NCBI GenBank assembly: GCA_017305715.1
Contig: JAFKKG010000030.1
Location: 3,728 to 67,727 of the forward strand
Length of the DNA: 64,000 nucleotides
Direction of reading: 5' to 3'
DNA from: Hyphomicrobiales bacterium
Lineage (GTDB): Bacteria; Pseudomonadota; Alphaproteobacteria; Rhizobiales; Xanthobacteraceae
Part shown: positions 30,083-56,482 of the stretch, in pieces
Position numbering within the stretch: position 1 is the stretch's first letter
How the letters are laid out: each line of letters opens with the position of its first letter
Position numbers and translations under genes: made by a program
Notes under the pieces: model-generated
Seen by the model: only the letters and a program-made list of their open reading frames with translations
Database searches by the model: none
Told to the model about the DNA's origin: nothing

Positions 30083-30433
30083 TCACGCCGGTGAAAGGGG
30101 AAATCGTTCAGCGGCTTCGTGGATGGCCTGGAGCAATCCCGATGGATGTTCCAACTTCACTTCGCAGAGCGATACGGTCTGCGAACCGAGCAGATGCGGG
30201 CGGATCGCGACGATCGATCGCGCATATTGCTCGGAGGATTCCCAGGCCTGGATCGCGGCTTCGTCCTCCCACAGCGTCACCGTGATGACGCAGTCGGGAT
30301 CATTGGTGTCCCGGGTGACCCAACGCGCGAGGCGGCCCTGCACGTTCGTCTTGCTGAAATCGCGGCGGTAGAGATCGTGCACGGCCTCCCATGCACCCGG
30401 CTGGAGGCGGCTCCAGTATAGACGAAGAAACAT
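30083..30433 (-). CDS. Antibiotic biosynthesis monooxygenase (ABM)-like protein
   Basis: About 116 aa; ITVTLWEDEAAIQAWESS; AAGGAG RBS. Confidence 0.65.
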   Translation of the reverse strand: MFLRLYWSRLQPGAWEAVHDLYRRDFSKTNVQGRLARWVTRDTNDPDCVITVTLWEDEAAIQAWESSEQYARSIVAIRPHLLGSQTVSLCEVKLEHPSGLLQAIHEAAERFPLSPA

Positions 30434-30532
30434 CGCTCTCTCCTTCAAGTCGGCATCGGGCAGGTGGATGATCCACGAAACATCGCCTGGCCCGGCCCAT
30501 CCTTATTACCCGCTGCGTCCGGGCCGCACGCT

Positions 30533-31135
30533 CTACCGGACGATTTCCCGTTCGAGGCGGCTCATTGCTTCAGACATCCGCGAAAAGCGCACGACTTGTT
30601 GTCCTACCGTTTCGAGCTGGAAACGAGAAGACAAATCGGTGCACTGACCGGAATCATCGAACAGTTTCGCCGAGGTGTTGAGCGCCGCGCCCAGGGGGGT
30701 CGGCCAGCCCCGCAGCGAATGCGCAATGGATCGCAGGGCTGCGAGCGTCTGTCCGGTCGCCTGCCATCCGGCGGCGCAGGCGATCAGCCCGATTGCGACG
30801 CCGTCGAAATAGACGCGCTCGGACGAGCGCAGTTCCTCGGCGTAGTCGAGTGCGTTCTTCACGAGACCGGACAGCGAACCGTGGTAGGCCGGCGAGGCGA
30901 TCACGATGCCGTCGCAACGGCGATAGAGGTCGATCAGCCGTTCCGCCTCGGGCGTATTCGGCGTCTGACCCGGATTGTACATCGGGAGCATCAGGTCGGG
31001 GCCGCTGATCATCACGGTTTCGGCACCCTCCGCGGCGGCGGCCGCCAGACATACGGCCAAGGCGCGTTCCGTGGAGGACCCGCTGCGCGGTGTCCCGCCG
31101 ACCCCAAGGATAAGCGGTCGTTTGTTCTCACCCAT
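30533..31135 (-). CDS. NAD(P)H-dependent FMN reductase (SsuE/MsuE-like fold)
   Basis: ILGVGGTPRSGSSTE, DGIVIASPAYHGSLSGLVKNALDY. Confidence 0.88.
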   Translation of the reverse strand: MGENKRPLILGVGGTPRSGSSTERALAVCLAAAAAEGAETVMISGPDLMLPMYNPGQTPNTPEAERLIDLYRRCDGIVIASPAYHGSLSGLVKNALDYAEELRSSERVYFDGVAIGLIACAAGWQATGQTLAALRSIAHSLRGWPTPLGAALNTSAKLFDDSGQCTDLSSRFQLETVGQQVVRFSRMSEAMSRLEREIVR

Positions 31136-31592
31136 GCCGTTCTCCCCCGAAATGTTGACGAGCCTGTTCCTGGTCCGGCCACACAACCGTCGCCTTGCCT
31201 TCGGCGACCTGCCGATCGCCCACGAAGGCGGCAAGGTCGCAATCGATGCCGGGCTGGGCGCTGTCGTCCCTGCGCGAACTCACGGTCACGATCGTCGTGA
31301 CGGTATCGCCCGGCCGGACCGGCGACAGGAACCGCGCCGCGACGCGGCTGACGCTGCCGCGCGGGCCGGCGCGATCGGTCAGCGCGCGGCACATGAAGGC
31401 CATCGTCAGCATGCCATGTGCGATCACCCCGCCGAGCTTGGCGTCGACCGCATAGTGATGATCGTAGTGGATCCGGTTGAAGTCGCCCGAAGCGCCGGCA
31501 TAACGGACGAGCTGCGTGGTCGTGACGGGACCGCAGGCCGCCTCGAACCGCGAGCCGACTTCGAAGGTGGCGAGATCGGGCAGGGAAATCAT
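31128..31592 (-). CDS. MaoC-like (R)-hydratase, catalytic subunit
   Basis: YAGASGDFNRIHYD, IAHGMLTM, RFLSPVRPGD. Confidence 0.88.
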   Translation of the reverse strand: MISLPDLATFEVGSRFEAACGPVTTTQLVRYAGASGDFNRIHYDHHYAVDAKLGGVIAHGMLTMAFMCRALTDRAGPRGSVSRVAARFLSPVRPGDTVTTIVTVSSRRDDSAQPGIDCDLAAFVGDRQVAEGKATVVWPDQEQARQHFGGERHG

Positions 31593-32047
31593 GCGAGGCT
31601 CTGTTCTGCCGGTCGATAGACCGTCGTGCGGCTCGAGACGAATACGATGTCCCCGTTCGCGTCGCTGCCTTCGAGGTCCTGATGCAGGAGCTGCATCTGC
31701 CCCTTGCGGCCGCCCTTGTCTTCGACGGCGCGCAGCTTCATCCGGCAGGTCAGCACCATGCCGGCCGTGATTGGGCGAACGATCGCAAAGGAGGTCTCGC
31801 CGGCCATGATCCGGCGTCGATCGAGATTGGCGATCCAGGGCGGGTCCATCGGCAGGCGGAAGGAGGTCGCGAAGGTCGGTGGCGCGACGAGATCGGCATA
31901 GCCTTGCTGCTTTGCCGCCGCCGGATCGTTGAAGATCGGATTATTGTCCCCGATCGCTTCGGCGAAGCGGCGGATCGCGCCGCGTTCGACCTCGACGGTG
32001 AAGGGGGCGGTCTCCGTCCCGACCAGGTTGCGGTCGACCTCGCTCAC
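31589..32047 (-). CDS. MaoC N-terminal/FAS1-like dehydratase domain protein (partner subunit)
   Basis: VERGAIRRFAEAIGDNNPIF, APPTF; GTGA overlap with the thiolase stop. Confidence 0.82.
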   Translation of the reverse strand: MSEVDRNLVGTETAPFTVEVERGAIRRFAEAIGDNNPIFNDPAAAKQQGYADLVAPPTFATSFRLPMDPPWIANLDRRRIMAGETSFAIVRPITAGMVLTCRMKLRAVEDKGGRKGQMQLLHQDLEGSDANGDIVFVSSRTTVYRPAEQSLA

Positions 32048-33213
32048 TGCAACGCCTCGACGATGGTCGCGGTGCCGAGACCGCCGCCGCAGCACATCGA
32101 TTGCAGCCCGTAGCGGCCACCGCGGCGTTCCAGTTCGTCGATCATGATCGTCATCAGCCTCGCGCCGGTCGATCCGAGCGGGTGACCGATCGCCATCGAG
32201 CCGCCATTGACGTTGACGCGGTCGAGATCCGGCTCGATCTCCTTGAGCCAGGAGCCGAGGATCGGCGCGAAGGCTTCGTTGATCTCGAACAGATCGATCT
32301 CGGACAGCCGGAGGCCTGAGCGCTTCAGGATATTCTGCGTCGCCGGAATCGGGCCGGTCAGCATCAGTTCGGGATCGACGCCGACGACGAGCTGCGCCTT
32401 GAGCCTGGCGCGGGGCCGGAGCGAGAATTCGCGCGCCGCACGCGCGCTCATGACGAGAATAGCCGACGCTCCGTCCGAAACCTGGCTGGCATTTCCGGCG
32501 GTGACGCGGCCGTTCTCGCGAAAGGCCGTTTTCAGGGAAGCGAGCTTTTCGCGCGAGGCATCGGCCCGGATGCCCTCGTCCCGCGTAAGCGTGGATCCGT
32601 CGGCCGCGGCGACGGGGACGATCTGCCGATCGAAACGACCCTCTTGCGTCGCTTCGGCCGCGAGTGCGTGGCTGCGCAGCGCCAGATCGTCCATATAGGC
32701 GCGATCAAGCTGCCAGTGGTCAGCGATCCGCTCGGCGGCCTCGCCCATCGAGGGCATCGAAAAGCGGCGCACCAGCTCTTCCGGATGGCGACGGCCATAT
32801 TTGGTATCTTCGTTGCCGCCCTGCGTCTTCGACATCAGCTCGACGCCGCAGGCGATCACGATTTCCGCGACGCCGCTCCGGATCATGTTGTCGGCGACAT
32901 GCACGGCCTGCTGAGAGGAGCCGCACGCACGCTGTACGGTCATGCCCGGTACGGTGACGGGGAGGCCGGCCATGAGAAGCGCCGTGCGTCCGACATTTCC
33001 GGCCTGCTCGCCGACCTGGGTCGCGCAACCCGCCACGACATCGTCGATCCGCGTGGCCGGCACGCCGCTACGGGCCACGATCGCCTTCAAGGTCTCCGCA
33101 AGGAGCGCCGCCGCATGCCATTCCCGCAGGGCTCCGCCGCGCCGTCCGACCGCCGTTCTGACGGCTTCCACGATGACGGGCTCGCGGTCCTCCAATTGGC
33201 TTACTTTCGTCAT
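32044..33213 (-). CDS. Thiolase (acetyl-CoA C-acyltransferase)
   Basis: QRACGSSQQA (Cys), FEINEAFA, GHPLGSTG (His), MCCGGGLG (Cys). Confidence 0.92.
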   Translation of the reverse strand: MTKVSQLEDREPVIVEAVRTAVGRRGGALREWHAAALLAETLKAIVARSGVPATRIDDVVAGCATQVGEQAGNVGRTALLMAGLPVTVPGMTVQRACGSSQQAVHVADNMIRSGVAEIVIACGVELMSKTQGGNEDTKYGRRHPEELVRRFSMPSMGEAAERIADHWQLDRAYMDDLALRSHALAAEATQEGRFDRQIVPVAAADGSTLTRDEGIRADASREKLASLKTAFRENGRVTAGNASQVSDGASAILVMSARAAREFSLRPRARLKAQLVVGVDPELMLTGPIPATQNILKRSGLRLSEIDLFEINEAFAPILGSWLKEIEPDLDRVNVNGGSMAIGHPLGSTGARLMTIMIDELERRGGRYGLQSMCCGGGLGTATIVEALQ

Positions 33214-33223
33214 CGGTGTCTCC

Positions 33224-34573
33224 TCAGTTGGCGATTTCGGCCGCAAGACCGGTATGAATCGCGCCCGCCCGGAAAGGATCGTGGCGAAGCGCGCGCAGGA
33301 TGAACGGGATATTGGTCTTCACGCCCTGGACCTCGAAATCCGCCAGAGCCGCCGCGAGAGTGTCGAGCGCCTCGTCGCGCGTGGCGCCATGCGCGATGAC
33401 CTTGGCCAGCATCGGGTCGTAGAAGGGCGTAACCTCGCAGCCCGTGGCATAGCCGGTCTCGACCCTCAATCCCGGTTTCGGCGAACAGGGCCGGAACTGC
33501 TCGAGCCGCCCGGGCGAGGGCATGAAGCTTTGCGGGTCTTCGGCGTAGATGCGGGCTTCAACGGCATGGCCGTCGAGGGAGATCTCCTTGGGCAGGACAT
33601 CGGAGATCGCCGTGCCGGCGGCGAGACGGAGCTGCGCCTTCACGATGTCGACGCCGGTGACCATCTCGGTGACGGCATGCTCGACCTGAAGACGGGTATT
33701 CATCTCGAGAAAGGAGAAGCTGCCGTCATCGGCCCGCAGCATCTCGACCGTGCCGATATTATCGTAGCCGAGCCCGGCCAGGATGCCCGTCGCGATATCG
33801 GCGATGGCGCGGAGCGGATCGCGGGGAAGCGCCGGGGCGGGCGCCTCCTCGACGACCTTCTGATGCCGGCGCTGGAGCGAGCAATCCCGCTCGAAGAGAT
33901 GGCGCGCTGCACCGTATTTGTCGGCGAGCAGCTGGAACTCGATGTGACGCGGCCGCGCGAGATAGCGTTCGAGATAGACCTGGCCGTTGCCGAAGCTGCG
34001 GGTTGCGAGGGAACGTGCACGCTCGACGCCGCGGGACAGGCTGGCCTCGTCCTGGGCGACGATCATCCCGATGCCGCCACCGCCGAGGGCCGGCTTCACG
34101 AGGACGGGATAACCGATCTGCCGGGCGGCGGCGGCGAAGTCGCCTCCTTCCTGCAACAGCTCCGAGCCGGCCGCCACGGGCATGCCGTGGCGGCGCATCA
34201 GATCGCGCGCCTCGGTCTTGTGGCCCATCGCCTCGATCCATCGCGGCGATGGACCGATGAACGTCATTCCGGCGTCCGCGACCGCTTGCGCGAAGGCGGC
34301 GTTCTCCGACAGGAAGCCGTAGCCGGGATGGATGGCATCGGCGCCGCTCTCGCGGGCGATGGCGATGATCTTGTCGGCCCGCAAATAGCTTTCGCGCGCG
34401 GGTGCGGCGCCGACGCCAAAAGCCTGGGTCGCCGCCTGCAGATACGGCGCCTTCGCGTCGGCTTCCGAGAATATCGCCACGGATGCAATGTCGAGCTCGC
34501 CGAGCGCGCGGATGATCCGGGATGCGGCGGCGCCGCGATTGGCGACCAGTACCTTGTGGAACGGCCGTTTCAT
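33224..34573 (-). CDS. Biotin carboxylase subunit (stand-alone, no fused BCCP)
   Basis: VLVANRG, IHPGYGFLSENA, GGGGIGM, RDCSLQRRHQKVVEEAP, EMNTRLQVEH, YDPMLAK. Confidence 0.92.
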   Translation of the reverse strand: MKRPFHKVLVANRGAAASRIIRALGELDIASVAIFSEADAKAPYLQAATQAFGVGAAPARESYLRADKIIAIARESGADAIHPGYGFLSENAAFAQAVADAGMTFIGPSPRWIEAMGHKTEARDLMRRHGMPVAAGSELLQEGGDFAAAARQIGYPVLVKPALGGGGIGMIVAQDEASLSRGVERARSLATRSFGNGQVYLERYLARPRHIEFQLLADKYGAARHLFERDCSLQRRHQKVVEEAPAPALPRDPLRAIADIATGILAGLGYDNIGTVEMLRADDGSFSFLEMNTRLQVEHAVTEMVTGVDIVKAQLRLAAGTAISDVLPKEISLDGHAVEARIYAEDPQSFMPSPGRLEQFRPCSPKPGLRVETGYATGCEVTPFYDPMLAKVIAHGATRDEALDTLAAALADFEVQGVKTNIPFILRALRHDPFRAGAIHTGLAAEIAN

Positions 34574-35295
34574 GTGGTCGCTCCGGCGAGACGCTGCAGC
34601 TTTCCGCTGACGTTGGTGTCCTTCGCGATCGCGGCCGCGGCAAGCATGTCGGCGTCCGAGATATCGCGCAGCAGCTCCTTCAGCGAACGGAGGATTGTCC
34701 CGGAGGCGGCGAGCGCGTCGGCCAAGGCCGTCGTCTCGGCGCGGAGCGTCGCCTGCGGCACCGCCTTCACGAGGCCGAGCCGCATCGCGTCGTCTGCCGA
34801 GACCGGCTTGGCAGTGGCCAGGATCTCGAAGGCGCGCGCGTACCCGACGCGGCGCAGCAGGGGAGGTGCCACGAGAGCCGGTATCATGCCGTGGCGGATT
34901 TCGGGGAAGGACAGGATCGCGTCATCCGCGCACAGCGCCATGTCGCAAGCGAGAGTCAGGCCGAAGCCTGCTCCAAGCGCAAAACCATGGACCTCGGCGA
35001 TGACGGGCTTGCGGAGTTGCCACGGCGCGAGCAGCAGGCGCGACATCAACTCCGCATGATGGCCGATCGCCCCGGCATCCTTGAGGCCGCTTGCTTCGCG
35101 CAGGTCGGCTCCGGCCGAGAAGCCGGCGCCGGTGCCCGCGAGGACGACGACGTTGACCGTCTCGTCTCTTTCAGCCCGCTCGAATTCGCTTAGCAGGGCT
35201 TCGATCGTACGGTGATTCAGCGCGTTCCGTTTGTCCGGCCGGTTCAGCACCAATCGGCGCACCGCGCCGCTGTCATCGACGAGCAGCTCAGGCAC
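34570..35295 (-). CDS. Enoyl-CoA hydratase/isomerase family protein
   Basis: LNRPDKRNAL, FSAGADL, VHGFALGAG, FPEIRHG. Confidence 0.88.
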   Translation of the reverse strand: MPELLVDDSGAVRRLVLNRPDKRNALNHRTIEALLSEFERAERDETVNVVVLAGTGAGFSAGADLREASGLKDAGAIGHHAELMSRLLLAPWQLRKPVIAEVHGFALGAGFGLTLACDMALCADDAILSFPEIRHGMIPALVAPPLLRRVGYARAFEILATAKPVSADDAMRLGLVKAVPQATLRAETTALADALAASGTILRSLKELLRDISDADMLAAAAIAKDTNVSGKLQRLAGATT

Positions 35296-36859
35296 CGATC
35301 GGCTCCCGGCCTGCGGCCTCGCGGCCGGCAATGCGGCCGCCGATCATGCACTCGGCGAGATTGCCGCCGCTGAGATAGAGATGGCCGAAGACCGATCCCA
35401 ATTCGCCGGCGGCGTAGAGGCCGGGGATCGCCTCGCCGAACGGGTTGAGGACTTCTTGCCGGACGTTGTGGACCGGCCCGCCTTGTGTGTTGATGACGAG
35501 CGGCCAGACCTGTCCGACATAGAAGGGCGGCGTATCGAGCGGCACCATGGTGTCGGGACGCCGGCCAAAGCCTTCGTCGTCGCCGGCGGTGCAGGCCCGA
35601 TTCCAGGTCGCGATCTCCTGGTTCAGGATCTCGGGATCGACTCCGATGCCTTGCGCCAACGCGTCCCAACTGTCGAACCGCCGGAAGAATCCGAGTTCGA
35701 TCTCCCGGGAATTATCGGCACTCCATTCGTACCAGCCGTCACGCCCGTTGATCGCGCAGCGTCCGAGCGGATACATCCGGCGACCCTTCTCGTCGAAGAC
35801 GATATGAGCGGGGATGCGGGGGAAGTCCTGGATCTTCGAATCGTAGAGATCGAGCGGACGAACGCCGAAATCGCCGGGGTAGGGCGGATATTCGTCCATG
35901 AAGCGGCGGCCGGTCTTGTCGAGAAGAATCCAGGCGAGCCGCGGGAGTTGCTTGCCTCCGGCCGGACGTCCCTGCTGGTCGACGACGCCGAGATCCGAGG
36001 TGCTCTCCGGATGTCCGGGATGCCACATCGGAATCGCCTTGAGATACAAACCATAGGGATAGGACGGATCCGGGTGACGGAAGCCGTAAGGTCCGTGATA
36101 GTGCCACATGTGCCAGAGCGCGGCCCCGACCTCCTGGGCCATCGCGATACCGTCGCCCGTATTGCCGAGGAACGAAGCCGGGATCACGGGATCGGCCTGC
36201 AGGAAATTCTGCTTCATTTCGGAATTCGCCTCGAAGCCGCCACAGGCGAGAATGACGCCGCGTCGCGCGCGAACGCGGCGCTGCTGTCCGTCCGCTTCGA
36301 CCACGACGCCGCAGACCCTGGCTCCCTCGCGGATCAGGCGCCGGACCGGGTGTCCCAGGTGGACGGCAATGGCGCGGGTCTGCATATTGTCTTCGAGGAC
36401 CTTGAACAGTCGGCATCCCGGCCGAATTCCGCGCACCGCGTGGAAGGAGGACGCGCCTTCGATCGCCGGGACCTCCGCCACCTCGCAGTAACCGAGCGCT
36501 TCCGAACCCGGCAGCGGATAATTGCCTCTTGCCGGCGTGACCTTCACGGTGGCACCGCTCACCTCGGCAAGCGTGCGCACCCAGTCGGAGACTTCTGTCA
36601 TGCCGTCCGCAAGGACGCGCAGCAGGTCATCCGGCGTCCGTCCGCCGCAGGTCGCCTTGAGATAGTCGAAAGCGGCATCGGCCTCGAATGCGATACGGAT
36701 TCCGCCGGCCGACACGATCGAGAGACCGCCGGGATCGGGCATCTTCTCAAAGACGGCGACCTGCGCTCCGGCATCGTGCGCCGCGATGGCAGCAGCCGCT
36801 CCCGCGGCGCCGAGGCCGACCACGACGACATCGACTTCCAGCTCCGTCATGTCTGTCAC
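35288..36859 (-). CDS. FAD-dependent oxidoreductase, FAD_binding_2 family (3-ketosteroid dehydrogenase/fumarate reductase flavoprotein-like)
   Basis: DVVVVGLGAAG, VILACGGFEAN, NTGDGIAMA, NTQGGP, IPGLYAAGE, GGNLAECM. Confidence 0.85.
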   Translation of the reverse strand: MTDMTELEVDVVVVGLGAAGAAAAIAAHDAGAQVAVFEKMPDPGGLSIVSAGGIRIAFEADAAFDYLKATCGGRTPDDLLRVLADGMTEVSDWVRTLAEVSGATVKVTPARGNYPLPGSEALGYCEVAEVPAIEGASSFHAVRGIRPGCRLFKVLEDNMQTRAIAVHLGHPVRRLIREGARVCGVVVEADGQQRRVRARRGVILACGGFEANSEMKQNFLQADPVIPASFLGNTGDGIAMAQEVGAALWHMWHYHGPYGFRHPDPSYPYGLYLKAIPMWHPGHPESTSDLGVVDQQGRPAGGKQLPRLAWILLDKTGRRFMDEYPPYPGDFGVRPLDLYDSKIQDFPRIPAHIVFDEKGRRMYPLGRCAINGRDGWYEWSADNSREIELGFFRRFDSWDALAQGIGVDPEILNQEIATWNRACTAGDDEGFGRRPDTMVPLDTPPFYVGQVWPLVINTQGGPVHNVRQEVLNPFGEAIPGLYAAGELGSVFGHLYLSGGNLAECMIGGRIAGREAAGREPIGA

Positions 36860-38391: not shown

Positions 38392-38424
38392 GCGATCCCC
38401 TCACTGTGGGTGCAATACTACAGG

Positions 38425-38450
38425 ATTGTGTGTATATCAAGGGACACAAT
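38425..38450. promoter_or_regulatory. Putative operator in divergent promoter region (MocR-motif site A)
   Basis: ATTGTGTG-N10-GACACAAT inverted repeat in an AT-rich 134-bp spacer. Confidence 0.55.
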
Positions 38451-38525
38451 TTGGGGAATATGATCTAGACAAAGATCGAAATTGTTAGCTAGTGATGGAG
38501 ACAGGCGTGACCCAGGGGAGCAATT

Positions 38526-38744: not shown

Positions 38745-38747
38745 TTC

Positions 38748-39914: not shown

Positions 39915-39918
39915 CGCC

Positions 39919-46298: not shown

Positions 46299-46344
46299 AT
46301 TGTCACTAGCATTGTATCGATAAGCTAGATACAATTGACACAAT
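46299..46344. promoter_or_regulatory. Putative MocR operator array (site C)
   Basis: Perfect ATTGTATC-N9-GATACAAT (46311-46335) flanked by ATTGTCAC (46299) and GACACAAT (46337). Confidence 0.65.
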
Positions 46345-46356
46345 CAGAGAGCCAAA

Positions 46357-47160: not shown

Positions 47161-47171
47161 GAGGGGACATC

Positions 47172-48713: not shown

Positions 48714-48738
48714 TGGGTATCGAAGGCGAGATGCGGCC

Positions 48739-50560: not shown

Positions 50561-50562
50561 GA

Positions 50563-51543
50563 ATGAGCGATCTCCTCCGCGTCGAGAATCTGACCACCTG
50601 GCTCGCCACCGAGTCCGGCATCATCACGGCTGTCGACGATGTGAGTTTCTCCGTTCGGCCCGGCCGCGCATTGGCGCTTGTCGGCGAATCCGGCTCCGGC
50701 AAGAGCATGACCTGCTCTTCCATCATGCGTCTTTTGCCCGCCAGTGGGCATATCGCCGGCGGCCGCGTGCTGTTCGAGGGGGAGGATCTCCTGGCCAAGA
50801 GCCCGGCCGAGATGGAGGCCATTCGCGGCCGCAAGATCGGCATGATCGTGCAGGATCCGATGACCTCGCTCAACCCGCTCTTTGACGTCGAGGATCAGGT
50901 CGGAGAGGTCTTCAGATATCACCTTGGCGATCGCTCGCGTCGCGCCCGACGGCCGAAGGTCCTGGACGTGCTGTCGCGTGTGCAGATTCCGGCCGCGGAG
51001 AAGCGCCTCGGATCCTATCCGCACGAATTTTCGGGCGGCATGCGCCAGCGCGTCGCGATTGCGCTCAACATCGCCTGCGCGCCGAAACTCCTGATCGCGG
51101 ACGAGCCGACGACTGCGCTCGACGTGACGGTGCAGCAGCAGATTTTGGCCCTGCTTCGCGATCTCCAGCGCGAGACCGGGATGGCGATCATTCTCGTGAC
51201 GCACGACCTGCACACGGTGCAACGCTTCTGCGACGAGGTCGCGATCATGTATGCCGGCCGGATCGTCGAGCAGGGGCCGGTGGCCGAGATCTTCGCGCGG
51301 CCGGCCCATCCTTATACGGAGGGACTTCTGCGAGCGCTGCCTCAGCTCGGGGGGCAGGAAGATCGCCTGCCGTTGATCCCCGGCCAGCCTCCGTCGCTGG
51401 CGTCGCTTCCTGCCGGGTGCAGGTTCGCGCCTCGCTGCCGGCGCGCGACCGATTTGTGCCGGACGGAATACCCCGACTGGATGGCAACGGCCGGCGAGAC
51501 ACGCCGCTCGGCCTGCTGGTACGCCGATGAGGTGCTCGGATGA
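50563..51543 (+). CDS. ABC ATP-binding protein, DppD-like
   Basis: GESGSGKS, FSGGMRQR, HPYT, GCRFAPRC. Confidence 0.92.
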   Translation: MSDLLRVENLTTWLATESGIITAVDDVSFSVRPGRALALVGESGSGKSMTCSSIMRLLPASGHIAGGRVLFEGEDLLAKSPAEMEAIRGRKIGMIVQDPMTSLNPLFDVEDQVGEVFRYHLGDRSRRARRPKVLDVLSRVQIPAAEKRLGSYPHEFSGGMRQRVAIALNIACAPKLLIADEPTTALDVTVQQQILALLRDLQRETGMAIILVTHDLHTVQRFCDEVAIMYAGRIVEQGPVAEIFARPAHPYTEGLLRALPQLGGQEDRLPLIPGQPPSLASLPAGCRFAPRCRRATDLCRTEYPDWMATAGETRRSACWYADEVLG

Positions 51544-52517
51544 GCGCTTTTCTCTCGGTACGGGACTTACGAAAGACGTTTCCGGTCTCCCGCGGCCTGT
51601 TCGGGAAGCCGGAGCTCTTGCACGCTGTCGCCGGGGTTTCGTTCGACGTGCCCGCCGGAACGACCTTCGGTCTCGTCGGCGAATCCGGTTCCGGCAAGAC
51701 CACGATCGCGAAAATGGTCATGGCAGCCGACGAGCCGACGTCGGGCGGGATCGTCATCGACGGCAGCGACATCGCCACGCACGGCAAGGCCGAACGTTTC
51801 GCCTTCCGGCGTCTCCTGCAGCCGGTGCTCCAGGATCCCTACAGCGCGCTCAGTCCGCGCATGCGAGTCGATCGCATCATCGACGAGCCGCTGCGGATTC
51901 ATCGCACCTATTCGAGCAAGGCGGCGCGCGCCGAACGGGTCGCCTACCTGCTCGACGCGGTCGGGCTGCCAGCGAGTGCGGCGCAGCGCTATCCGAACGA
52001 GATGTCGGGTGGGCAGCGCCAGCGCGTGGCGATCGCTCGGGCTCTCGCGCTTGAACCACGCCTTCTTGTTCTGGACGAACCGGTTTCGGCGCTCGACGTG
52101 TCGATTCAGGCCCAGATCCTGAACCTGCTTCGCGACCTGCAGGACCGGCTCGGTCTGACCTTCCTGCTGATTTCGCACGATCTCGCCGTCATCGGCTTCA
52201 TGAGCACGCAGGTTGGCGTGCTCTATCTGGGAAGATTCGTCGAAGTCGGCTCGAAAGAGACGATCCTTTCCGACGCGCGGCATCCCTACACCCTGGCTCT
52301 GATTGCCTCCGCCGTGCCCGAAGCCGACGCCGCCCCGGTTACCGGGGAGATACCCTCGCCTTTGTCCCCGCCATCGGGCTGCGTGTTTCACACCCGCTGT
52401 CCCGTTGCCACCGATCGCTGCCGCCAGGAGGTGCCATCCCTGCGCCAGTTGAAGCCCAACCACCTCGTTGCCTGCCATTTCGCGGAAACAACCCGCAAGG
52501 AGACCCGTAATGCTTGA
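51540..52517 (+). CDS. ABC ATP-binding protein, DppF-like
   Basis: GESGSGKT, MSGGQRQR, HPYT, GCVFHTRC. Confidence 0.92.
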   Translation: MSAFLSVRDLRKTFPVSRGLFGKPELLHAVAGVSFDVPAGTTFGLVGESGSGKTTIAKMVMAADEPTSGGIVIDGSDIATHGKAERFAFRRLLQPVLQDPYSALSPRMRVDRIIDEPLRIHRTYSSKAARAERVAYLLDAVGLPASAAQRYPNEMSGGQRQRVAIARALALEPRLLVLDEPVSALDVSIQAQILNLLRDLQDRLGLTFLLISHDLAVIGFMSTQVGVLYLGRFVEVGSKETILSDARHPYTLALIASAVPEADAAPVTGEIPSPLSPPSGCVFHTRCPVATDRCRQEVPSLRQLKPNHLVACHFAETTRKETRNA

Positions 52518-53703
52518 AAGGAATCGACTCATGGAACGCCCGATTGATCCGGAAGCAGCCCTGCATACCGCGGACATGAAGGCGCTGCGCGAACTCGCGA
52601 TCACCAAGTTTCGCGAACGCGGGCGCGGCTACGATGCCAATTGCGACATGCCGGTCGAGAACATCGAGGAGCTTCACCGGGGCGGATGGCTGCGCACCAC
52701 GCTGTCGAAGGAGCGCGGAGGTCGCGGCAGCAATCTCGATACCGACGATCCGGCGACATATCTGCAGGCTCAGCGTAGCATTGCGCAGGGTTGTCCCGGC
52801 ACCGCACATTGTTATCAGGTGACCAACCACACCGCCTGGTGTCTGGAAGCCATCGGCACAAAGAGCCAGAAGGAGCGCTACCTTGACCCGATGCGGGAGC
52901 GCTCGTTCCTGGGTTCGTTCGTTGGCAGCGAAGCCAAGCGCAAGCACATGTACATGATGAATACGACCGCCAAGAAGGTCGATGGCGGATGGGTCATCAA
53001 CGGCGAGAAGAACTACGCCACCAATGCGCCGACGATGGCCTTCGCGATCATCTTCGTCGCCCTCGAAGGAACCGAGGACTACAACCAAAATCACCAGATG
53101 ATCATCATCGAGCCCGGTATGAAGGGCGTCTCGATGGATCACACCTGGTATCGGCCGAACGGGATGCGGGCGACGCCATCCTCGATCATCACGCTCGACA
53201 ACGTATTTGTGACGGAAGACCAACTCCTCGGCGAGCCGGGCGCCTATCCGCGTCAGCGCTGGCAGGGGAAATTCCATCTCGGTTTCGCGGCGACCTATCT
53301 GGGCGCGACCGAGGGCATGTACGAATGGTACCTCGATTACGTTCGCAAGCGCGGCCGTGGCCGGGACGGCATCGTCCAGATGCGAACCGGCGAAATGAAG
53401 ATTCAGCTCGAAGCGGCGCGGGCGATTTTTCATCACGCCATCACGTGCTGGAAGACGAAACCGGTCGTTGAGGCGGAGCTTGCGTCCATGGCGGCCAAAT
53501 CGACGATTGCGCATGTCGCCTTCGAGCTCTCCCACAAGATCATCCACGCCGCCGGATCGACCGCGCTGTTCGACGAGTTCCCGCTCAGCCGCTATCTGCG
53601 CGATTTGGAAACCCACGTGCTGCACGCGGGACACGACCGGACGTCGCAAATCATAGGGCTGTCGGAGCTGGGAGAAAGCTTCGATTCGACCCTGCAGCGC
53701 TGA
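52510..53703 (+). CDS. Acyl-CoA dehydrogenase-fold protein, probably a DszC/SfnB-like flavin-dependent monooxygenase
   Basis: NGEKNYATNA, W...GMRATPS, GSTAL, LSRYLRD..THVLH; lacks the QF(G)...FQ and GGxG CoA/FAD motifs of true dehydrogenases; start may be 52531. Confidence 0.7.
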   Translation: MLERNRLMERPIDPEAALHTADMKALRELAITKFRERGRGYDANCDMPVENIEELHRGGWLRTTLSKERGGRGSNLDTDDPATYLQAQRSIAQGCPGTAHCYQVTNHTAWCLEAIGTKSQKERYLDPMRERSFLGSFVGSEAKRKHMYMMNTTAKKVDGGWVINGEKNYATNAPTMAFAIIFVALEGTEDYNQNHQMIIIEPGMKGVSMDHTWYRPNGMRATPSSIITLDNVFVTEDQLLGEPGAYPRQRWQGKFHLGFAATYLGATEGMYEWYLDYVRKRGRGRDGIVQMRTGEMKIQLEAARAIFHHAITCWKTKPVVEAELASMAAKSTIAHVAFELSHKIIHAAGSTALFDEFPLSRYLRDLETHVLHAGHDRTSQIIGLSELGESFDSTLQR

Positions 53704-53712
53704 CCACGTCGA

Positions 53713-53738
53713 GCGGAGGCGGATCACGCCGCCTCCGC
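53713..53738. other. Intercistronic GC-rich hairpin
   Basis: Perfect 10-bp stem GCGGAGGCGG-N6-CCGCCTCCGC with no U-tract. Confidence 0.55.
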
Positions 53739-53822
53739 AACATCCGCTGCAACTGAAAGGCTCGGCACCGCGACGATCGTCGCGGATTCGCCGGGTGGTC
53801 CATCGGGGAGGTTTGCCGGAAG

Positions 53823-54881
53823 ATGCGAAAACTCGAACTGGGCTGGTTCATTCCCACGCAAGGCGATACGACGGCTTACGGCGATCCGGGTGCATCCGTG
53901 CCGCCATCGATCGATGCTTTCGACCGCGTGTCGCTCAGTGCGGAGCGCGCTGGTTTCGAGTACCTGCTGATTCCGGTCAACGTCCATTGCTGGGAAGCCT
54001 GGATCACAGGCGCGATGATGGCGGCCCGAACCAAATCGATCAAGCCGCTCATCGCGGCCCGGCCCGGCTACATCAATCCCGTGCTGCTGGCAAAGATGAT
54101 CTCGACATTCGATCAACTCACCGGCGGACGGATCTGCATCAATCTGATCGCCGGTCTGAGCGACGAGCAATATGCCGCCGACGGGCTGCCCTACAGCAAA
54201 AACGACCGCTATCTGCTGATGGATGAGGAAGTCAGCATCCTCAAGGCCCTATGGAAGGCCGACGGGCCAATCGACTACAACGGTCAATTCTACAAGCTCA
54301 AGGGCGTTCAGGTCATCCCGCCGGTCCTTCAGAAGCCGTATCCGAAATTCTATCTGGGAGGCGGCTCGAAGGAAGCTTGGGAGATCTCGGCCAAGCATGC
54401 GGACGTCCATCTCTTCTGGGGCGACCACCCGGATCGGGTGGCCGAGAATATGAGCCAGATTCGACAACGCGCGGCAACGTACGGGCGGGCCGCCGAGATC
54501 GGCTTCGGCATGCGCCTGCAGATCATCTGCCGCGAGCGCGAGGAGGACGCCTGGGCGGCCGCCGACCAACTCATTCGTCACGCGGATGCGGAATTCCGCA
54601 AGGATGTCGCCGGCCGTTTCCAGAATTCGGTGGCGAACAGCCGGATGCAGGAACTCTCCAGCCAGGACCTTATCATCCCCCATCTGTGGACCGGCATCAC
54701 CAAAGTGCGTCCCGGTGCAGGCATCGCAGTCGTCGGCGATCCCCGGCAGTGCGCCGACACGCTGCAGAAGTTCATCGACATCGGCTGCCATTCATTCTGC
54801 CTGTCGGGCTATCTCCACGACGAGGAGGCGGAGCGCTTTGGCCGCATGGTGCTGCCGCTGCTGAGGGCGAAGAACGCATAG
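53823..54881 (+). CDS. Luciferase-like monooxygenase, SsuD (alkanesulfonate monooxygenase)-like
   Basis: WFIPTQGD, LIP...CWEAW, RPG, YLGGGS, LWTGITKVRPGAGIAVVG, LSGY.HDEEA all parallel SsuD motifs. Confidence 0.82.
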   Translation: MRKLELGWFIPTQGDTTAYGDPGASVPPSIDAFDRVSLSAERAGFEYLLIPVNVHCWEAWITGAMMAARTKSIKPLIAARPGYINPVLLAKMISTFDQLTGGRICINLIAGLSDEQYAADGLPYSKNDRYLLMDEEVSILKALWKADGPIDYNGQFYKLKGVQVIPPVLQKPYPKFYLGGGSKEAWEISAKHADVHLFWGDHPDRVAENMSQIRQRAATYGRAAEIGFGMRLQIICREREEDAWAAADQLIRHADAEFRKDVAGRFQNSVANSRMQELSSQDLIIPHLWTGITKVRPGAGIAVVGDPRQCADTLQKFIDIGCHSFCLSGYLHDEEAERFGRMVLPLLRAKNA

Positions 54882-54931
54882 TCATTTTGTCGGCGAGAAT
54901 TCAAGCCAACCGCAGTATGTGAGGAACGACG

Positions 54932-56482
54932 ATGTGGGTGAATAAACATGGACCGCGCGTCGCGATCGCTGCGCTCGCTCTCGTCTGTGCCATGCTCGGC
55001 GCTACGCCGTCGATCGCGATTGGCGGGAAGCCGGCAGCCGACAAGGGCACCATCATCATCGCTATCGGCCGAGATATCGCGATGCTCGACGCACAGGTCG
55101 ACAATACCGGGAATTCCGACCGCTATGCCTGGCAGATGTTCGATAATCTCTACACGTTCGACAAGCAGGGCAAGCTGATCCCTCAGGTCGCCAGGGATGT
55201 GAAGGTTTCCGACGACGGTCTCGACTATCGATTTTCCATCCGGCAGGACGTCATCTTTCACAACGGCGCCAAATTGACGGCCGAAGACGTGAAGTTCTCC
55301 TTCGACCGAATCCTGGACCCGGCAACCAAGAGCACGCGGCGGCCTTATTTTTCCGACATCATCGACCGGGTCGAGGTCATTGATCCCGCGACCGTCAACG
55401 TCAAGCTCAGGCAGCGCGACGTGGTCTTCATGAACAAGGTGGCGGCTTTCGTCGCCCTGGTGCCGAAGGCGTATGTGGAGTCGCTGCCGTCCGCCGAGGC
55501 TTTCGCCAGGGCGCCGGTCGGCGCTGGGCCCTACAAGCTTGTCTCGCACAAGATTGGACAATCTCTCGAACTCGAGCGTCACGACGCCTATTACGGCGCC
55601 AAGCCGGCGATCAAGCGTTTGGTTTTTCGGTACATCCCCGACGCATCAAGCCGCCTCAACGCGATGCGTGCCGGCGAGGTCGATATGGCCGACATGATCG
55701 CACCGAGCGACGTGAAGCAGATCAAAGAATCGGCCGGGGTATCGGTTGTGCTCGTACCGGCCGGGAGTCCGCTGCACATTCGTCTCTATTCGAGCGTGCC
55801 GAACACGCCGCTGGCCGACAAACGCGTGCGCCTTGCGTTGAACTACGCGATTGACGTCGATGCCATCATCAAGCATGTGCAACATGGCATCGGCAAGCCT
55901 CTGACGTCCTTCATCTCGGCCTACTATCCGGTGGGCGTCGATCCCGATCTGAAGCCCTATCCATTCGATCCGAAGCTGGCGCGTAAGCTTCTCGCCGACG
56001 CGGGCTATCCACGCGGCTTCGAGACCGAACTGCTGAGCCCGAATTCCTATCCGAAGGATGTCACCGACGCGGTCGCCGGCTACTGGCAGGCCATCGGCGT
56101 GCGGGCAAAGACCAAAGTGCTGGACTATCCAGCGTGGAATCGGCTCAACAACACGCACGCGTCCGGGCCGATGACCGTTATGCAATATTCGAACGCGATC
56201 TATGATCCGATCACCGCGATCTTCGGTACCGCAGCCAAGAAGGGCACCTGGTCGGACTATAGCAATCCCGAAGTCGATGCGCTGATCGAACAGACCAACT
56301 CGGTCGAGGATCCGGCCGAGCGCGACAAGCTGTTCCGCAAGATCGCACGCATCATGCGCGATGACGGGCATGCCGTTCTGATTTCGGAGCTGTTCTCCGT
56401 TTTTGCGATGGACAGCCAGATCGAATGGGTGCCTCAACAGGGTTACGCGTTCTACGACCTGCGCACCATCCATTGGAAATGA
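54932..56482 (+). CDS. ABC substrate-binding protein, family 5, paralog 3
   Basis: FHNGAKLTAEDVKF, VGAGPYK, RLNNTHASGP. Confidence 0.9.
   Translation: MWVNKHGPRVAIAALALVCAMLGATPSIAIGGKPAADKGTIIIAIGRDIAMLDAQVDNTGNSDRYAWQMFDNLYTFDKQGKLIPQVARDVKVSDDGLDYRFSIRQDVIFHNGAKLTAEDVKFSFDRILDPATKSTRRPYFSDIIDRVEVIDPATVNVKLRQRDVVFMNKVAAFVALVPKAYVESLPSAEAFARAPVGAGPYKLVSHKIGQSLELERHDAYYGAKPAIKRLVFRYIPDASSRLNAMRAGEVDMADMIAPSDVKQIKESAGVSVVLVPAGSPLHIRLYSSVPNTPLADKRVRLALNYAIDVDAIIKHVQHGIGKPLTSFISAYYPVGVDPDLKPYPFDPKLARKLLADAGYPRGFETELLSPNSYPKDVTDAVAGYWQAIGVRAKTKVLDYPAWNRLNNTHASGPMTVMQYSNAIYDPITAIFGTAAKKGTWSDYSNPEVDALIEQTNSVEDPAERDKLFRKIARIMRDDGHAVLISELFSVFAMDSQIEWVPQQGYAFYDLRTIHWK

Follow-up and report, generated by a model that had tools for sequence, protein, structure and literature searches.

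The 26-kb cluster at positions 30083-56482 of the window (the whole 64,000-nucleotide stretch of DNA that was analysed), located in a 7.45-Mb Bradyrhizobium genome, is an import-and-breakdown route without a match among the described pathways. We put at about even the chances that it serves, under MocR control, to break down a small anionic organosulfur acid along a CoA-dependent route that no described pathway covers. What we demonstrate is the gene set (Table 1), its local operator, its conservation in three layouts and its conserved catalytic residues; the mechanism is what we infer. All gene families named in a preliminary description of this DNA were recovered by Pfam scans, each where it had been placed. 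None of the enzymes of the cluster reached an NCBIfam equivalog cut-off, and therefore all pathway steps are assigned at the family level only. Literature searches also found no description of the cluster, which agrees with the earlier view that it cannot be matched to a characterised pathway.

Table 1. Features of the cluster (positions in the window; SBP, binding protein)
Feature	Position	Strand	Evidence and remarks
ABM-domain protein (121 aa) at the end of the putative minus-strand operon	30083-30448	-	PF03992, 36.4 bits
NAD(P)H-dependent FMN reductase	30533-31234	-	PF03358 (FMN_red), 84 bits; start probably near 31135
MaoC hydratase, catalytic half	31128-31592	-	PF01575 (MaoC_dehydratas), 83.5 bits; GDFNRIHYDHH
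MaoC-like N-type hot-dog half, non-catalytic	31589-32095	-	PF13452 (FAS1_DH_region), 97 bits; start probably at 32047
Thiolase (AtoB/FadA type)	32044-33246	-	Thiolase_N, 231 bits; Thiolase_C, 141 bits
Biotin carboxylase subunit, no fused BCCP	33224-34573	-	CPSase_L_D2, Biotin_carb_N, Biotin_carb_C
Crotonase-fold (ECH) protein	34570-35331	-	ECH_1, 150 bits
Cytoplasmic FAD flavoprotein, fumarate-reductase/KstD/urocanate-reductase family	35288-36850	-	FAD_binding_2
Carboxyltransferase subunit, PCC/ACC type	36856-38391	-	Carboxyl_trans, 386 bits
Divergent promoter region	38392-38525	.	Operator ATTGTGT-N12-ACACAAT (38425-38450), another ATTGTGT at 38523; kept in L005, L001, L002, L003
Small biotin carboxyl carrier protein (BCCP), 72 aa	38526-38744	+	ESMKME, read from the sequence and translated
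Acyl-CoA dehydrogenase (ACAD)	38748-39914	+	Four ACAD domains
Four-domain rhodanese	39919-41466	+	PF00581 x4
MocR-type regulator	41474-42919	-	GntR wHTH and aminotransferase-fold domain (PF00392, PF00155); start probably at 42856
MocR/CoA-ligase divergent region	42857-43013	.	GACATTGAC-N5-ATTGTATCC ... GGATGTATCGAT; kept in L005 and L001, partly in L002 and L003
Acyl-CoA ligase	42939-44660	+	AMP-binding, 242 bits; AMP-binding_C; start probably at 43014
SBP1 (SBP_bac_5)	44694-46283	+	PF00496, 290 bits
Promoter region	46284-46356	.	Nested palindrome ATTGTCAC-N4-ATTGTATC-N9-GATACAAT-TGACACAAT; kept in L005 and L001
FabG-like short-chain dehydrogenase (SDR)	46357-47160	+	adh_short_C2, 210 bits
SBP2 (SBP_bac_5)	47172-48713	+	PF00496
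Two Dpp-type permeases	48628-50560 (48739-49656, 49649-50560)	+	BPD_transp_1
Two ABC ATPases, oligo_HPY tails	50557-52517 (50557-51543, 51540-52517)	+	ABC_tran, oligo_HPY
ACAD-fold SfnB-like protein	52531-53703	+	Pfam matches
GC-rich hairpin between SfnB-like and SsuD-like genes	53712-53738	+	Read from sequence
SsuD-like luciferase-family monooxygenase	53823-54881	+	PF00296
SBP3 (SBP_bac_5)	54932-56482	+	PF00496, 281 bits

Conservation and regulation of the gene set

The search for conservation elsewhere found the gene set kept as a unit in three layouts (types 1 to 3) across Alpha- and Betaproteobacteria. Because the set recurs together in other genomes, the view that its genes make up one functional unit is supported. 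The conserved core consists of the KstD/fumarate-reductase-like flavoprotein, the SDR, the Acd-related ACAD, the heteromeric MaoC hydratase, the thiolase, the ACAD-fold oxygenase and the flavin reductase, with the Dpp-type importer and the four-domain rhodanese as usual companions. The set is found together in Enterovirga, Xanthobacter, a Hyphomicrobiales MAG and Bradyrhizobium lablabi, and it is present in full in the loci L001, L002, L003 and L005; a rearranged set occurs in Pandoraea, Paraburkholderia, Pusillimonas, Ferrovibrio and Azospirillum. In the betaproteobacterial genomes it forms a single operon, which begins with an SBP, the flavoprotein, the SDR, a second SBP, the ligase, the permeases and the ATPases and continues with the SfnB-like gene, ACAD, thiolase, MaoC_N, MaoC_C and flavin reductase. 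The third layout is that of Ferrovibrio, Azospirillum and L070. Within the genus, the ACAD orthologue is found in 2 of 151 genomes. A repeat of the 5' half of tRNA-Gln flanks the region on both sides, and a resolvase gene adjoins the cluster in Enterovirga. The cluster is rare, probably mobile and, in our best reading, horizontally acquired.

The window holds 11 copies of the heptamer ATTGTRT where 4.3 are expected, a count that none of 100 shuffles attained; seven of these copies lie in three intergenic regions (38425-38529, 42938 and 46311-46344). In the 7.45-Mb genome there are 289 copies of the heptamer and two of the inverted repeat ATTGTRT-N(6-16)-AYACAAT, both of which lie in promoter regions of the cluster. 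In the orthologous clusters L005, L001, L002 and L003, the corresponding intergenic regions retain the ATTGT/ACAAT arrangement, and we regard the case for an operator as strong. Four transcription units had been proposed to share it. With units defined by strand and spacing only, the motif is present in three intergenic regions but was not found upstream of the SsuD-like gene. The SsuD-like protein scores 288.7 bits against SsuD, below the cut-off of 518; its gene follows the SfnB-like gene elsewhere only in B. lablabi and has a 65% paralogue elsewhere in the genome. Since the SsuD-like gene and SBP3 were found only in Bradyrhizobium and the operator is absent, both are add-ons rather than core. 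The SsuD-like gene is present as described, but as a lineage-specific addition to the cluster, and the two proteins would form a Bradyrhizobium-specific extension. The hairpin that separates the SsuD-like gene from the SfnB-like gene has no T tract and was not called in the terminator scan.

The PLP lysine of MocR is intact and, in an alignment with LysN, matches the lysine of SFSK. From the sequence, MocR is predicted to bind the ATTGT/ACAAT repeats in the three promoter regions. The sensor suggests an amine ligand, and the effector is probably the substrate or an intermediate in an amine-bearing form. Given this hint, the finding that no deaminating enzyme is encoded in the cluster counts against our best reading.

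Enzymes and their proposed roles

Uptake would proceed via a Dpp/Gsi-like ABC importer supplied by paralogous binding proteins. The three SBP_bac_5 proteins are 49-57% identical to one another (SBP1 and SBP2, 57%; SBP3 to these two, 49-51%), and the nearest solved relatives of SBP2 are HbpA (190 bits), the YliB/GsiB type (168 bits) and DppA (157 bits). The CoA ligase, which reached no equivalog cut-off, would activate the imported compound. The CoA ester may then undergo one beta-oxidation-like turn, with dehydrogenation by the ACAD (Acd-related, yet redox-competent, with an IVD-type Glu), hydration by the heteromeric MaoC (R)-hydratase, oxidation of the hydrated product by the SDR and cleavage by the thiolase. 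Type 1 and type 2 loci both retain the catalytic MaoC half, which in all three type 3 loci examined (L084-L086) adjoins the SfnB-like gene. The N-type half, with the motif GDNNPIF and without the His, adjoins ACAD in type 3 loci. Orthologues of the thiolase are 68-96% identical. For the SDR the range is 58-94% among type 1 and type 2 loci, and the orthologue of one type 3 locus (L084) has 67% identity.

The best NCBIfam match of the ACAD is SulpropCoADesulf (279 bits, below the cut-off of 600). Its PDB matches are 5ol2 and 5af7; the latter, a desulfinase, is among the top neighbours (193 bits) and shares the SxGAIGAI and EPxAGSAA stretches with it. Both butyryl-CoA dehydrogenases and the desulfinase Acd are relatives of the ACAD. 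In its orthologues YN(A/V/I)ERLG, IYGGT and AHR(S/T)STG are invariant; the IVD-type Glu and, close to the position of Acd Arg84, a His-Arg pair are invariant too. At both desulfinase-defining residues that were tested the ACAD fails, and we therefore do not predict that it releases sulfite, a point against our best reading.

The label "DszC/SfnB-like" held in part: the ACAD-fold gene is present, but the match to the SfnB model is weak, at 91.7 bits where the cut-off is 430.9. Its two ACAD base positions, whose meaning was taken from PMC9293079, are His249 and Ala366, with no Glu at either. The structure model (pLDDT 87) gives TM values of 0.81-0.88 to ACADs and 0.83 to DszC. By sequence and fold the protein is equally close to true acyl-CoA dehydrogenases and DszC. 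The fold search leaves oxygenase and dehydrogenase unseparated, and this and the weak SfnB likeness are counted against our best reading. A flavin reductase accompanies the gene in all three layouts, and these reductases are non-orthologous (FMN_red in type 1, Flavin_Reduct in types 2 and 3). The one in our cluster scores under the cut-offs for SsuE and ArsH and has counterparts at 70-92% in L001, L002, L003 and L005; for the ABM protein, orthologues turned up only in L001, L002 and L005. The SfnB-like protein is probably the oxygenase component of a two-component flavin monooxygenase. With reduced flavin from the cluster reductase, it would oxygenate either the substrate or some released fragment, with sulfur as the most plausible site.

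Orthology to a known sulfur-free pathway, such as Atu/Liu or steroid side-chain degradation, had been named as a possible refutation of the earlier proposal. The carboxyltransferase scores 355 bits as PCC beta against 183 as MCC beta and 176 as GCC beta, and this PCC/ACC type refutes Atu/Liu orthology. Its motif KAIGLAY(I/L) is invariant; the biotin carboxylase scores 522 bits against the AccC-type model (cut-off 597), and BCCP orthologues are 45-88% identical. None of the steroid-pathway models reaches its cut-off. Neither comparison refutes the earlier proposal, and nor does the search for conservation of the gene set elsewhere.

The PDB matches of the flavoprotein are urocanate reductase, KstD and flavocytochrome c, and all its NCBIfam matches are under cut-off. 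In L007 and L016 an orthologue (57-60%) immediately precedes the beta-type operon, and an orthologue was present in each of the six type 2 genomes searched. The enzyme might desaturate or reduce a C=C bond adjoining a carboxyl or carbonyl group. The best PDB match of the crotonase-fold protein is 3-hydroxypropionyl-CoA dehydratase (117 bits); in all its orthologues the first catalytic Glu is replaced by Gly or Ala and the second is kept. The carboxylase and ECH were seen only in alphaproteobacterial-labelled loci and are absent from the betaproteobacterial operons; the carboxylase also occurs in one MAG labelled only Proteobacteria. Carboxylase-bearing genomes are without a high-scoring PrpD, and the betaproteobacterial genomes have one. 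In the alphaproteobacterial layouts, the three-subunit carboxylase and the one-Glu crotonase-fold enzyme could process a short acyl-CoA end product, perhaps propionyl- or acetyl-CoA. The roles given to the flavoprotein, ECH and carboxylase are guesses.

The indirect sulfur link and the probable substrate

The link to sulfur is indirect, with the rhodanese and the kinship of ACAD with the desulfinase Acd (3-sulfinopropionyl-CoA desulfinase) as its main supports, beside the weak SfnB likeness. The rhodanese has the four domains described, but the active-site Cys is in domain 2 only (HCAGRTRG), with CAGRTR invariant in the orthologues; this single Cys may handle the sulfur product. Four-domain rhodanese paralogues also occur in organosulfur clusters. 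Those of Pandoraea adjoin a Cys/Met PLP enzyme with an amino-acid ABC system, and also CDO_I, an ACAD-like gene, an LLM and an NMT1-type binding protein, a neighbourhood that matches the published one of mercaptosuccinate dioxygenase. Counted against our best reading are the lack of a rhodanese within the Pandoraea operons themselves, of a thiol dioxygenase in the genome, and of a sulfite oxidase or exporter conserved with the cluster; a YeiH-type gene adjoins the cluster here and is absent from the B. lablabi locus.

The first proposal, side-chain beta-oxidation coupled to S-oxygenation and desulfurisation, is supported in part, and its sulfur chemistry stays at the level of inference. The substrate is most probably a small, hydrophilic, anionic carboxylic acid carrying sulfur, such as a short acid with thia-, sulfino-, sulfo- or mercapto-substitution. 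Long-chain and heterocycle-valerate substrates (biotin, lipoate) we neither favour nor reject. The TDP pathway of V. paradoxus involves TDP-CoA, and its cluster has ACAD homologues. Like our cluster with its heteromeric MaoC, this pathway needs two enoyl-CoA hydratases, which are suspected to act as a heteromer of the kind seen in the MaoC-like hydratase of M. tuberculosis; we count the resemblance towards the sulfur link.

Gene content and layouts

The gene inventory of the preliminary description was reproduced by a GC3-guided ORF call and Pfam scans, and the units are collected in the table below together with the other features discussed here. Distant paralogues aside, the cluster proteins are single-copy in the genome. 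Ten key proteins were scored against the NCBIfam models and none of them reached a curated cut-off, so all the assignments are at the family level. The nearest solved relatives of the three SBP_bac_5 binding proteins (SBP1-3) are HbpA and YliB/GsiB-type proteins, followed by DppA and opine binders, with modest scores; these proteins belong to the peptide/opine/nickel family.

Coordinates of the cluster, its predicted transcription units and related features. Positions without a locus or genome label are those of the window. CT, BC and BCCP: carboxylase subunits; ACAD: acyl-CoA dehydrogenase; LLM: luciferase-like monooxygenase.
Feature	Position	Strand	Content or remark
Cluster	30083-56482		
Minus-strand operon	38391 down to 30083	-	CT, FAD_binding_2 flavoprotein, crotonase-fold protein, BC, thiolase, two MaoC halves, FMN reductase, ABM
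Flavoprotein	35288-36850	-	
Unit divergent from minus-strand operon		+	72-aa BCCP (ESMKME), ACAD, four-domain rhodanese
ACAD	38748-39914	+	
MocR regulator			divergent from CoA ligase and SBP1
Long plus-strand unit		+	SDR, SBP2, two permeases, two ATPases, SfnB-like ACAD-fold protein
SfnB-like protein	52531-53703	+	
SsuD-like protein	53823-54881	+	luciferase-family monooxygenase, 3' of a GC-rich hairpin; SBP3 lies beyond it
Inverted repeats	38425; 46311		ATTGTRT-N6-16-AYACAAT
tRNA-Gln(ttg) gene	14422-14496		
tRNA-Gln repeat pair	14360-14496; 56517-56600		about 42 kb apart; core with long identical runs
Second Dpp-type importer and neighbours	14750-27720		SBP_bac_5, two permeases, fused double ATPase; SDR, flavin-containing monooxygenase-like protein, AsnC regulator, PALP-family enzyme, LLM
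Genes abutting the ABM end of the cluster	27908-29983		LysR regulator divergent from YeiH-type (Cons_hypoth698) membrane protein
Genes just beyond the repeat	56609-59560	-	PHBH-type aromatic hydroxylase (FAD_binding_3 + Rng_hyd_C), Peripla_BP_6 binding protein
Bradyrhizobium lablabi gene	L005:751-2160		Pyr_redox_2/Pyr_redox_dim, disulfide-reductase-like
Enterovirga recombinase gene	L082:3315-3947		resolvase/HTH_7, directly 3' of SfnB-like gene
Further rhodaneses of Pandoraea captiosa	L097:7120-10899 / L098:7986-13899		two neighbourhoods
Second ACAD-fold gene, some beta-type clusters	L017:16534-18227; L013:16647-17813		3' of rhodanese; in L017 a flavin reductase follows immediately
MmgE/PrpD-family genes, Ferrovibrio and Azospirillum	G007:C1:2375369-2376079; G005:C21:47789-48499		inside or beside type 3 clusters

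An ACAD scan of the species-representative genomes gave 19 loci at 62-96% identity, and the next match fell to 43%. All cluster proteins were then compared by tblastn with these ACAD-bearing loci and their extensions. Three layouts were defined in this way, in which the gene set is conserved as a unit. Type 1 is the full window arrangement, found in Bradyrhizobium, Enterovirga, Xanthobacter and one Hyphomicrobiales MAG. In type 2, the genes form a single operon (SBP, flavoprotein, SDR, SBP, ligase, permeases, ATPases, SfnB-like gene, ACAD, thiolase, MaoC_N, MaoC_C and flavin reductase) with a divergent IclR gene; its hosts are Pandoraea, Paraburkholderia, Pusillimonas, further beta MAGs and one MAG labelled Beijerinckiaceae, and in some members the operon is followed by a ligase gene, the rhodanese gene and a second gene for an ACAD-fold protein. 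Type 3, from Ferrovibrio, Azospirillum and two MAGs, consists of flavoprotein-CT, BC-BCCP, a class III CoA-transferase, ACAD-MaoC_N, rhodanese, a KASIII-DUF35 fusion, an SCPx thiolase and MocR, with SDR-SfnB-like-MaoC_C nearby. MmgE/PrpD-family genes occur at the type 3 clusters listed in the table, and none is present in the window's cluster. The recurrent "unknown" ORFs of the related loci are mostly antisense shadow ORFs of high-GC genes.

From the comparison of the three layouts, the conserved core consists of the flavoprotein, the SDR, the ACAD, both MaoC halves, a thiolase and the SfnB-like protein, together with a flavin reductase and an enzyme for CoA activation. The carboxylase and the enoyl-CoA hydratase (ECH) occur in types 1 and 3 only. 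The SsuD-like gene lies 3' of the SfnB-like gene in B. lablabi only, and not in Enterovirga or Xanthobacter. Loci of types 1 and 3, and several of type 2, have a four-domain rhodanese with an invariant active Cys within the cluster or close to it; the Pandoraea operons have no in-cluster rhodanese. Among the related loci compared, no sulfite-handling gene is conserved with the cluster.

Enzyme assignments and regulation

The closest solved relatives of the cluster ACAD are butyryl-CoA dehydrogenases (C4, short-chain) and the 3-sulfinopropionyl-CoA desulfinase Acd, whose structure 5af7 is the second-best PDB match. Both the cluster ACAD and Acd have Gly at the MCAD-type base position. At the IVD-type position, the cluster ACAD has Glu (YNAERLG) where 5af7 has Gln (YNAQRVG); this Glu is invariant in the 19 orthologues, and the lack of a catalytic glutamate that marks Acd is not seen here. 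The residue aligned with Arg84 of Acd, reportedly the sulfinate-binding residue, is Ala or Gly in the cluster ACAD and its orthologues, and an invariant His-Arg is found 3-4 residues further on. With the NCBIfam Acd equivalog the score is 278.8 bits, under the cut-off of 600. According to a published rule on the two base positions, a desulfinase has Gln at the IVD-type position and no Glu at the MCAD-type position (PMC9293079). Applied to the IVD-type Glu, the rule predicts that the cluster ACAD is active as a dehydrogenase and does not act as a desulfinase.

The SfnB-like protein has the ACAD fold without the dehydrogenase catalytic Glu, since the two base positions are occupied by His249, which is invariant, and Ala366. 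Its structure model (pLDDT 87) has a TM of 0.83 to DszC, and true ACADs are equally close, so the fold search is non-discriminating. True ACADs also score equally well in the PDB searches, and the matches to PigA, HsaA and HpaH-type oxygenases are of similar size. Its scores to SfnB (91.7 bits, cut-off 430.9) and DszC (68.4 bits, cut-off 850) are both low. The best evidence for a role as an oxygenase comes from the gene neighbourhood: a flavin reductase is encoded along with the SfnB-like protein in all layouts, from the FMN_red family in type 1 and from the Flavin_Reduct family in types 2 and 3. We also considered a ChsE-type partner subunit of the ACAD, as the genes form adjacent ACAD/MaoC_N and SfnB-like/MaoC_C pairs, and gave it low weight because the SfnB-like gene always comes with a flavin reductase, and these reductases are not orthologous. 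The SsuD-like protein scores 288.7 bits, below the SsuD cut-off of 518.2, and the cluster FMN reductase scores 28.9 bits to SsuE (cut-off 164). The SsuD-like gene is not set in an ssuE/ssuABC-type context, the ABC system there being Dpp-type.

For the remaining enzymes, the PF01575-type catalytic MaoC half carries GDFNRIH and its partner half is non-catalytic. The crotonase-fold protein has lost the first catalytic Glu in every orthologue, and its best solved match is 3-hydroxypropionyl-CoA dehydratase. In the rhodanese, a CAGRTR active-site loop is found only in domain 2 of the four, and the loop is invariant among orthologues. Two further four-domain rhodaneses with about 36% identity to the cluster rhodanese exist in the Pandoraea captiosa genome. 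One has CDO_I as a neighbour, along with a gene of the ACAD fold, an LLM, a class II aldolase and an NMT1-type binding protein, and this neighbourhood is an organosulfur cluster in its own right, without an assigned pathway. The other lies with LysR, an amino-acid ABC system, a faint cupin and a Cys/Met PLP enzyme, which matches the published mercaptosuccinate dioxygenase neighbourhood of V. paradoxus B4 and A. mimigardefordensis (LysR, Msdo, cystathionine beta-lyase, rhodanese and amino-acid ABC; PMC5373536). That dioxygenase route, however, has no CoA chemistry, and only the rhodanese family is common to it and our cluster. Other sulfur-type genes around the cluster are the SsuD-like gene and, upstream, those of the PALP enzyme and LLM. 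The link of the cluster to sulfur is indirect; the TDP pathway described below also belongs to it. It is opposed by the lack of a thiol dioxygenase (Mdo/CDO) in the genome, by the Pandoraea operons without their own rhodanese and by the lack of a co-conserved sulfite-handling gene. An Mdo-type step was rejected on account of the missing thiol dioxygenase.

The preliminary description had assigned one operator motif to all transcription units of the cluster. This was upheld for three promoter regions, which hold 7 of the 11 copies of ATTGTRT in the window (4.3 expected, and no shuffle gets to 11); no motif lies 5' of the SsuD-like gene. The inverted repeat listed in the table has only these two occurrences in the whole 7.45-Mb genome. 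The orthologous clusters of B. lablabi, Enterovirga, Xanthobacter and the Hyphomicrobiales MAG have ATTGT/ACAAT elements in the same arrangement between the corresponding genes. Like GabR, TauR, PdxR and EnuR, the regulator combines a GntR winged helix (PF00392) with a fold-type I aminotransferase domain (PF00155) in which the PLP lysine is kept, aligned with SFSK of 2egy, and it has repeats in its own divergent promoter and in the putative target promoters. Operator enrichment, the cluster-only inverted repeat, the footprint in orthologous loci and the PLP lysine together make a local MocR regulon well supported on sequence grounds. To our knowledge, the described MocR systems do not include the ATTGT/ACAAT operator, the effector or the regulated pathway of this cluster. 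A promoter and terminator scan gave 1 promoter-like site (3.4 expected) and a terminator count at chance level.

Candidate pathway and its alternatives

Our leading reading, held at about even odds, is that the cluster serves to degrade a small organosulfur acid. The compound would be imported, activated with CoA and passed through one beta-oxidation-like turn; oxygenation with reduced flavin would take place, and the sulfur product would then be handled by the rhodanese. The alphaproteobacteria would carboxylate the short acyl-CoA end product. PrpD-family scores start at 318 bits in the beta genomes and do not exceed 242 bits in the alpha ones. These values would fit carboxylation in place of the methylcitrate cycle in alphaproteobacteria, but as the family is broad they are no more than suggestive. 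Of all the assigned roles, we are least sure of those given to the flavoprotein and the one-Glu crotonase. A more specific proposal, a CoA-dependent desulfurisation route not previously described, has five parts: an Acd-cousin redox ACAD would dehydrogenate a 3-thia-, sulfino- or sulfo- short acyl-CoA; hydration by the heteromeric MaoC would expel the sulfur group; a new family of ACAD-fold two-component monooxygenases would oxygenate the released sulfur species, which would go to the one-Cys four-domain rhodanese; the cluster's own three-subunit carboxylase would capture the C3/C2 acyl-CoA remainder; and MocR with a new ATTGT-N-ACAAT operator would control the set. That all five hold together is tentative and rather doubtful.

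No published description of the gene set was found in the literature on related organosulfur, ACAD, MaoC and rhodanese systems. The cluster falls outside the Acd, SfnB/DszC, SsuD, Atu/Liu and steroid enzyme families. It would be a combination, not found described, of known enzyme families, and in its working it would come closest to the TDP/DTDP and DMSP-demethylation routes with a Dsz/Msu-type oxygenase added. Catabolism of 3,3'-thiodipropionate and 3,3'-dithiodipropionate (TDP/DTDP) in Variovorax paradoxus TBEA6 and Advenella mimigardefordensis DPN7 (Act, AcdA, Mdo, Ech-20/Ech-30) is also a CoA-dependent breakdown of short thia-acids with propionyl-CoA as end product. In strain TBEA6 it involves TDP-CoA and two essential enoyl-CoA hydratases suspected of forming a heteromer, and its gene cluster also encodes ACAD homologues and the Acd desulfinase (PMC6370202). 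The Variovorax genes were compared by description; their ACAD-family enzyme is related to ours through 5af7, and a class III CoA-transferase adjoins the ACAD in L070, a type 3 locus. Our cluster differs in the catalytic Glu and the missing Arg84 counterpart of its ACAD, in the lack of Mdo/CDO in the window genome, in the additional ACAD-fold oxygenase with its reductase, KstD-like flavoprotein, SDR, thiolase, rhodanese and Dpp-type importer, and in having its own carboxylase in the alphaproteobacterial loci. In DMSP demethylation (DmdB, DmdC and DmdD on 3-methylthiopropionate), a CoA ligase is followed by an ACAD that makes a 3-thio-enoyl-CoA, from which a hydratase releases the thiol. The likeness, drawn from description and not from sequence, is confined to this logic of ligase, ACAD and hydratase, whereas the cluster hydratase is of the heteromeric MaoC type and not a crotonase, and an SDR, a thiolase, an oxygenase, a flavoprotein and a rhodanese are present in addition. 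The Bradyrhizobium version resembles the DszC/DszA/DszD, MsuC/MsuD/MsuE and SfnB/SfnG systems in bringing together an ACAD-fold oxygenase, an LLM and an NAD(P)H:flavin reductase. However, its scores are far under every equivalog cut-off, the LLM partner is not kept outside Bradyrhizobium, and the genes sit within a CoA-dependent carbon pathway, predicted to be under MocR, and not in a sulfate-starvation regulon.

The substrate could instead be a sulfur-free small acid, amino-acid or peptide-like compound, with the ACAD-fold oxygenase hydroxylating C or N and the rhodanese being incidental or having another role. MocR sensors such as GabR and TauR generally bind amines, and the binding-protein family, the weak SfnB match with PigA, HsaA, HpaH-type oxygenases and true ACADs alongside, the Pandoraea operons without rhodanese and the lack of a conserved sulfite-handling gene all point the same way. 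Set against them are the active-Cys rhodanese of types 1 and 3 and of several type 2 loci, its paralogues in clearly organosulfur contexts, the sulfinate-binding Acd among the nearest functionally characterised neighbours of the ACAD and the SsuD-like enzyme recruited in the Bradyrhizobium version; we regard a sulfur-free substrate as unlikely, though of real weight. It is improbable that the cluster acts on a carboxyalkyl-substituted sulfur heterocycle (biotin, lipoate, thiophene- or thiolane-carboxylates), whose side chain would be shortened by repeated beta-oxidation before the ring sulfur is oxygenated as in the Dsz 4S pathway. The ACAD groups with C4 short-chain enzymes and Acd, the importer belongs to a hydrophilic peptide type, conservation of the LLM stops at Bradyrhizobium, and no ureido-ring amidohydrolase or DszB-type desulfinase was found among the Pfam-scanned cluster genes, even though such a substrate would account for a complete beta-oxidation set with a DszC-fold oxygenase and reductase, would suit the KstD-like flavoprotein (ring desaturation) and would recall DszA with DszC in the LLM 3' of the oxygenase.

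The SfnB-like, SsuD-like and FMN-reductase genes make up the usual trio of sulfur scavenging by two-component organosulfur monooxygenases (PMC8234197, PMC11588060), and the cluster could serve this purpose under sulfate starvation (ssu, msu, sfn-like) and not carbon catabolism. We rate this improbable too, as there is a dedicated MocR with a local operator and no visible CysB/Cbl/SfnR-type system, a full CoA-dependent carbon route with carboxylase is co-conserved, and the SsuD-like gene was found in Bradyrhizobium alone and is without the operator. There is finally the case, raised earlier as one that would overturn the proposal, of a version of a sulfur-free branched-chain or polycyclic route, namely Atu/Liu (terpenoid or leucine) or steroid side-chain degradation. 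The carboxylase, ECH and ACAD recall Liu and Atu, and the paired ACAD-fold genes, the KstD-like flavoprotein and the heteromeric MaoC architecture, which is common to the cluster and steroid side-chain degradation, recall the igr/Chs genes. All parts of an acyl-CoA carboxylase of the PCC/ACC type are present, with CT (Carboxyl_trans 386 bits), BC and a biotinylatable BCCP. The CT scores 355 bits to PCC beta, compared with 183 to MCC beta and 176 to GCC beta, which places it outside the MCC/GCC clade; where PccB has its functional residue Asp422, it carries Ile or Leu. BC (449 aa) and BCCP are encoded by separate genes on opposite strands and not as a fused BC-BCCP alpha subunit, and no HMG-CoA-type lyase family appears among the Pfam matches of the cluster genes. 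The steroid models are all far under their cut-offs (KstD 166.7, cut-off 789; CasG 222, cut-off 750; FadD3 328.7, cut-off 657; IpdE2 61, cut-off 450), and the second ACAD-fold protein is always paired with a flavin reductase. Orthology to these routes is therefore largely refuted, and we consider it extremely improbable.

The degradation of an organosulfur acid, if correct, would bear on a group of compounds whose routes are genetically detailed in few model strains (thiodipropionate-like antioxidants, mercapto- and sulfino-acids, and plant- or DMSP-derived products). The cluster's combination of CoA chemistry, flavin oxygenase and sulfurtransferase matches none of the known organosulfur routes. 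Three of its enzyme families (SfnB-like oxygenase, Acd-like dehydrogenase, KstD-like flavoprotein) have no assigned reaction, and there are culturable hosts (B. lablabi, Xanthobacter sp. DSM 24535 and the Pandoraea type strains). The compact regulator-operator pair could become a biosensor for the cluster's substrate.

Mobility and neighbouring genes

The ACAD orthologue occurs in 2 of 151 genomes of the genus. The 14.4-56.6-kb segment has the tRNA-Gln gene at one end and a copy of that gene's leader and 5' half at the other, enclosing the whole cluster together with the upstream sulfur-related genes, which suggests a genomic island; no integrase was seen. From these two observations and the resolvase gene in the Enterovirga cluster, the cluster is a patchily distributed and probably mobile module, conserved in members of two proteobacterial classes from soil, the rhizosphere and bioreactors.

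The binding protein of the second Dpp-type importer, in the same bracketed segment, has only about 30% identity to SBP1-3. The YeiH-type gene is not at the equivalent place in B. lablabi, where the disulfide-reductase-like gene is found. The PHBH-type hydroxylase and Peripla_BP_6 genes have no relation to the cluster, and none of the related loci has them. The public sequencing runs containing the window are mostly DNA metagenomes, and from the two that may be RNA only fragments of a related strain were obtained, at low depth. In these two (X13 and X19, "organism C"), short low-depth contigs have 90-99% identity to many cluster genes over window positions 29900-49800, which looks like a related Bradyrhizobium in those samples.
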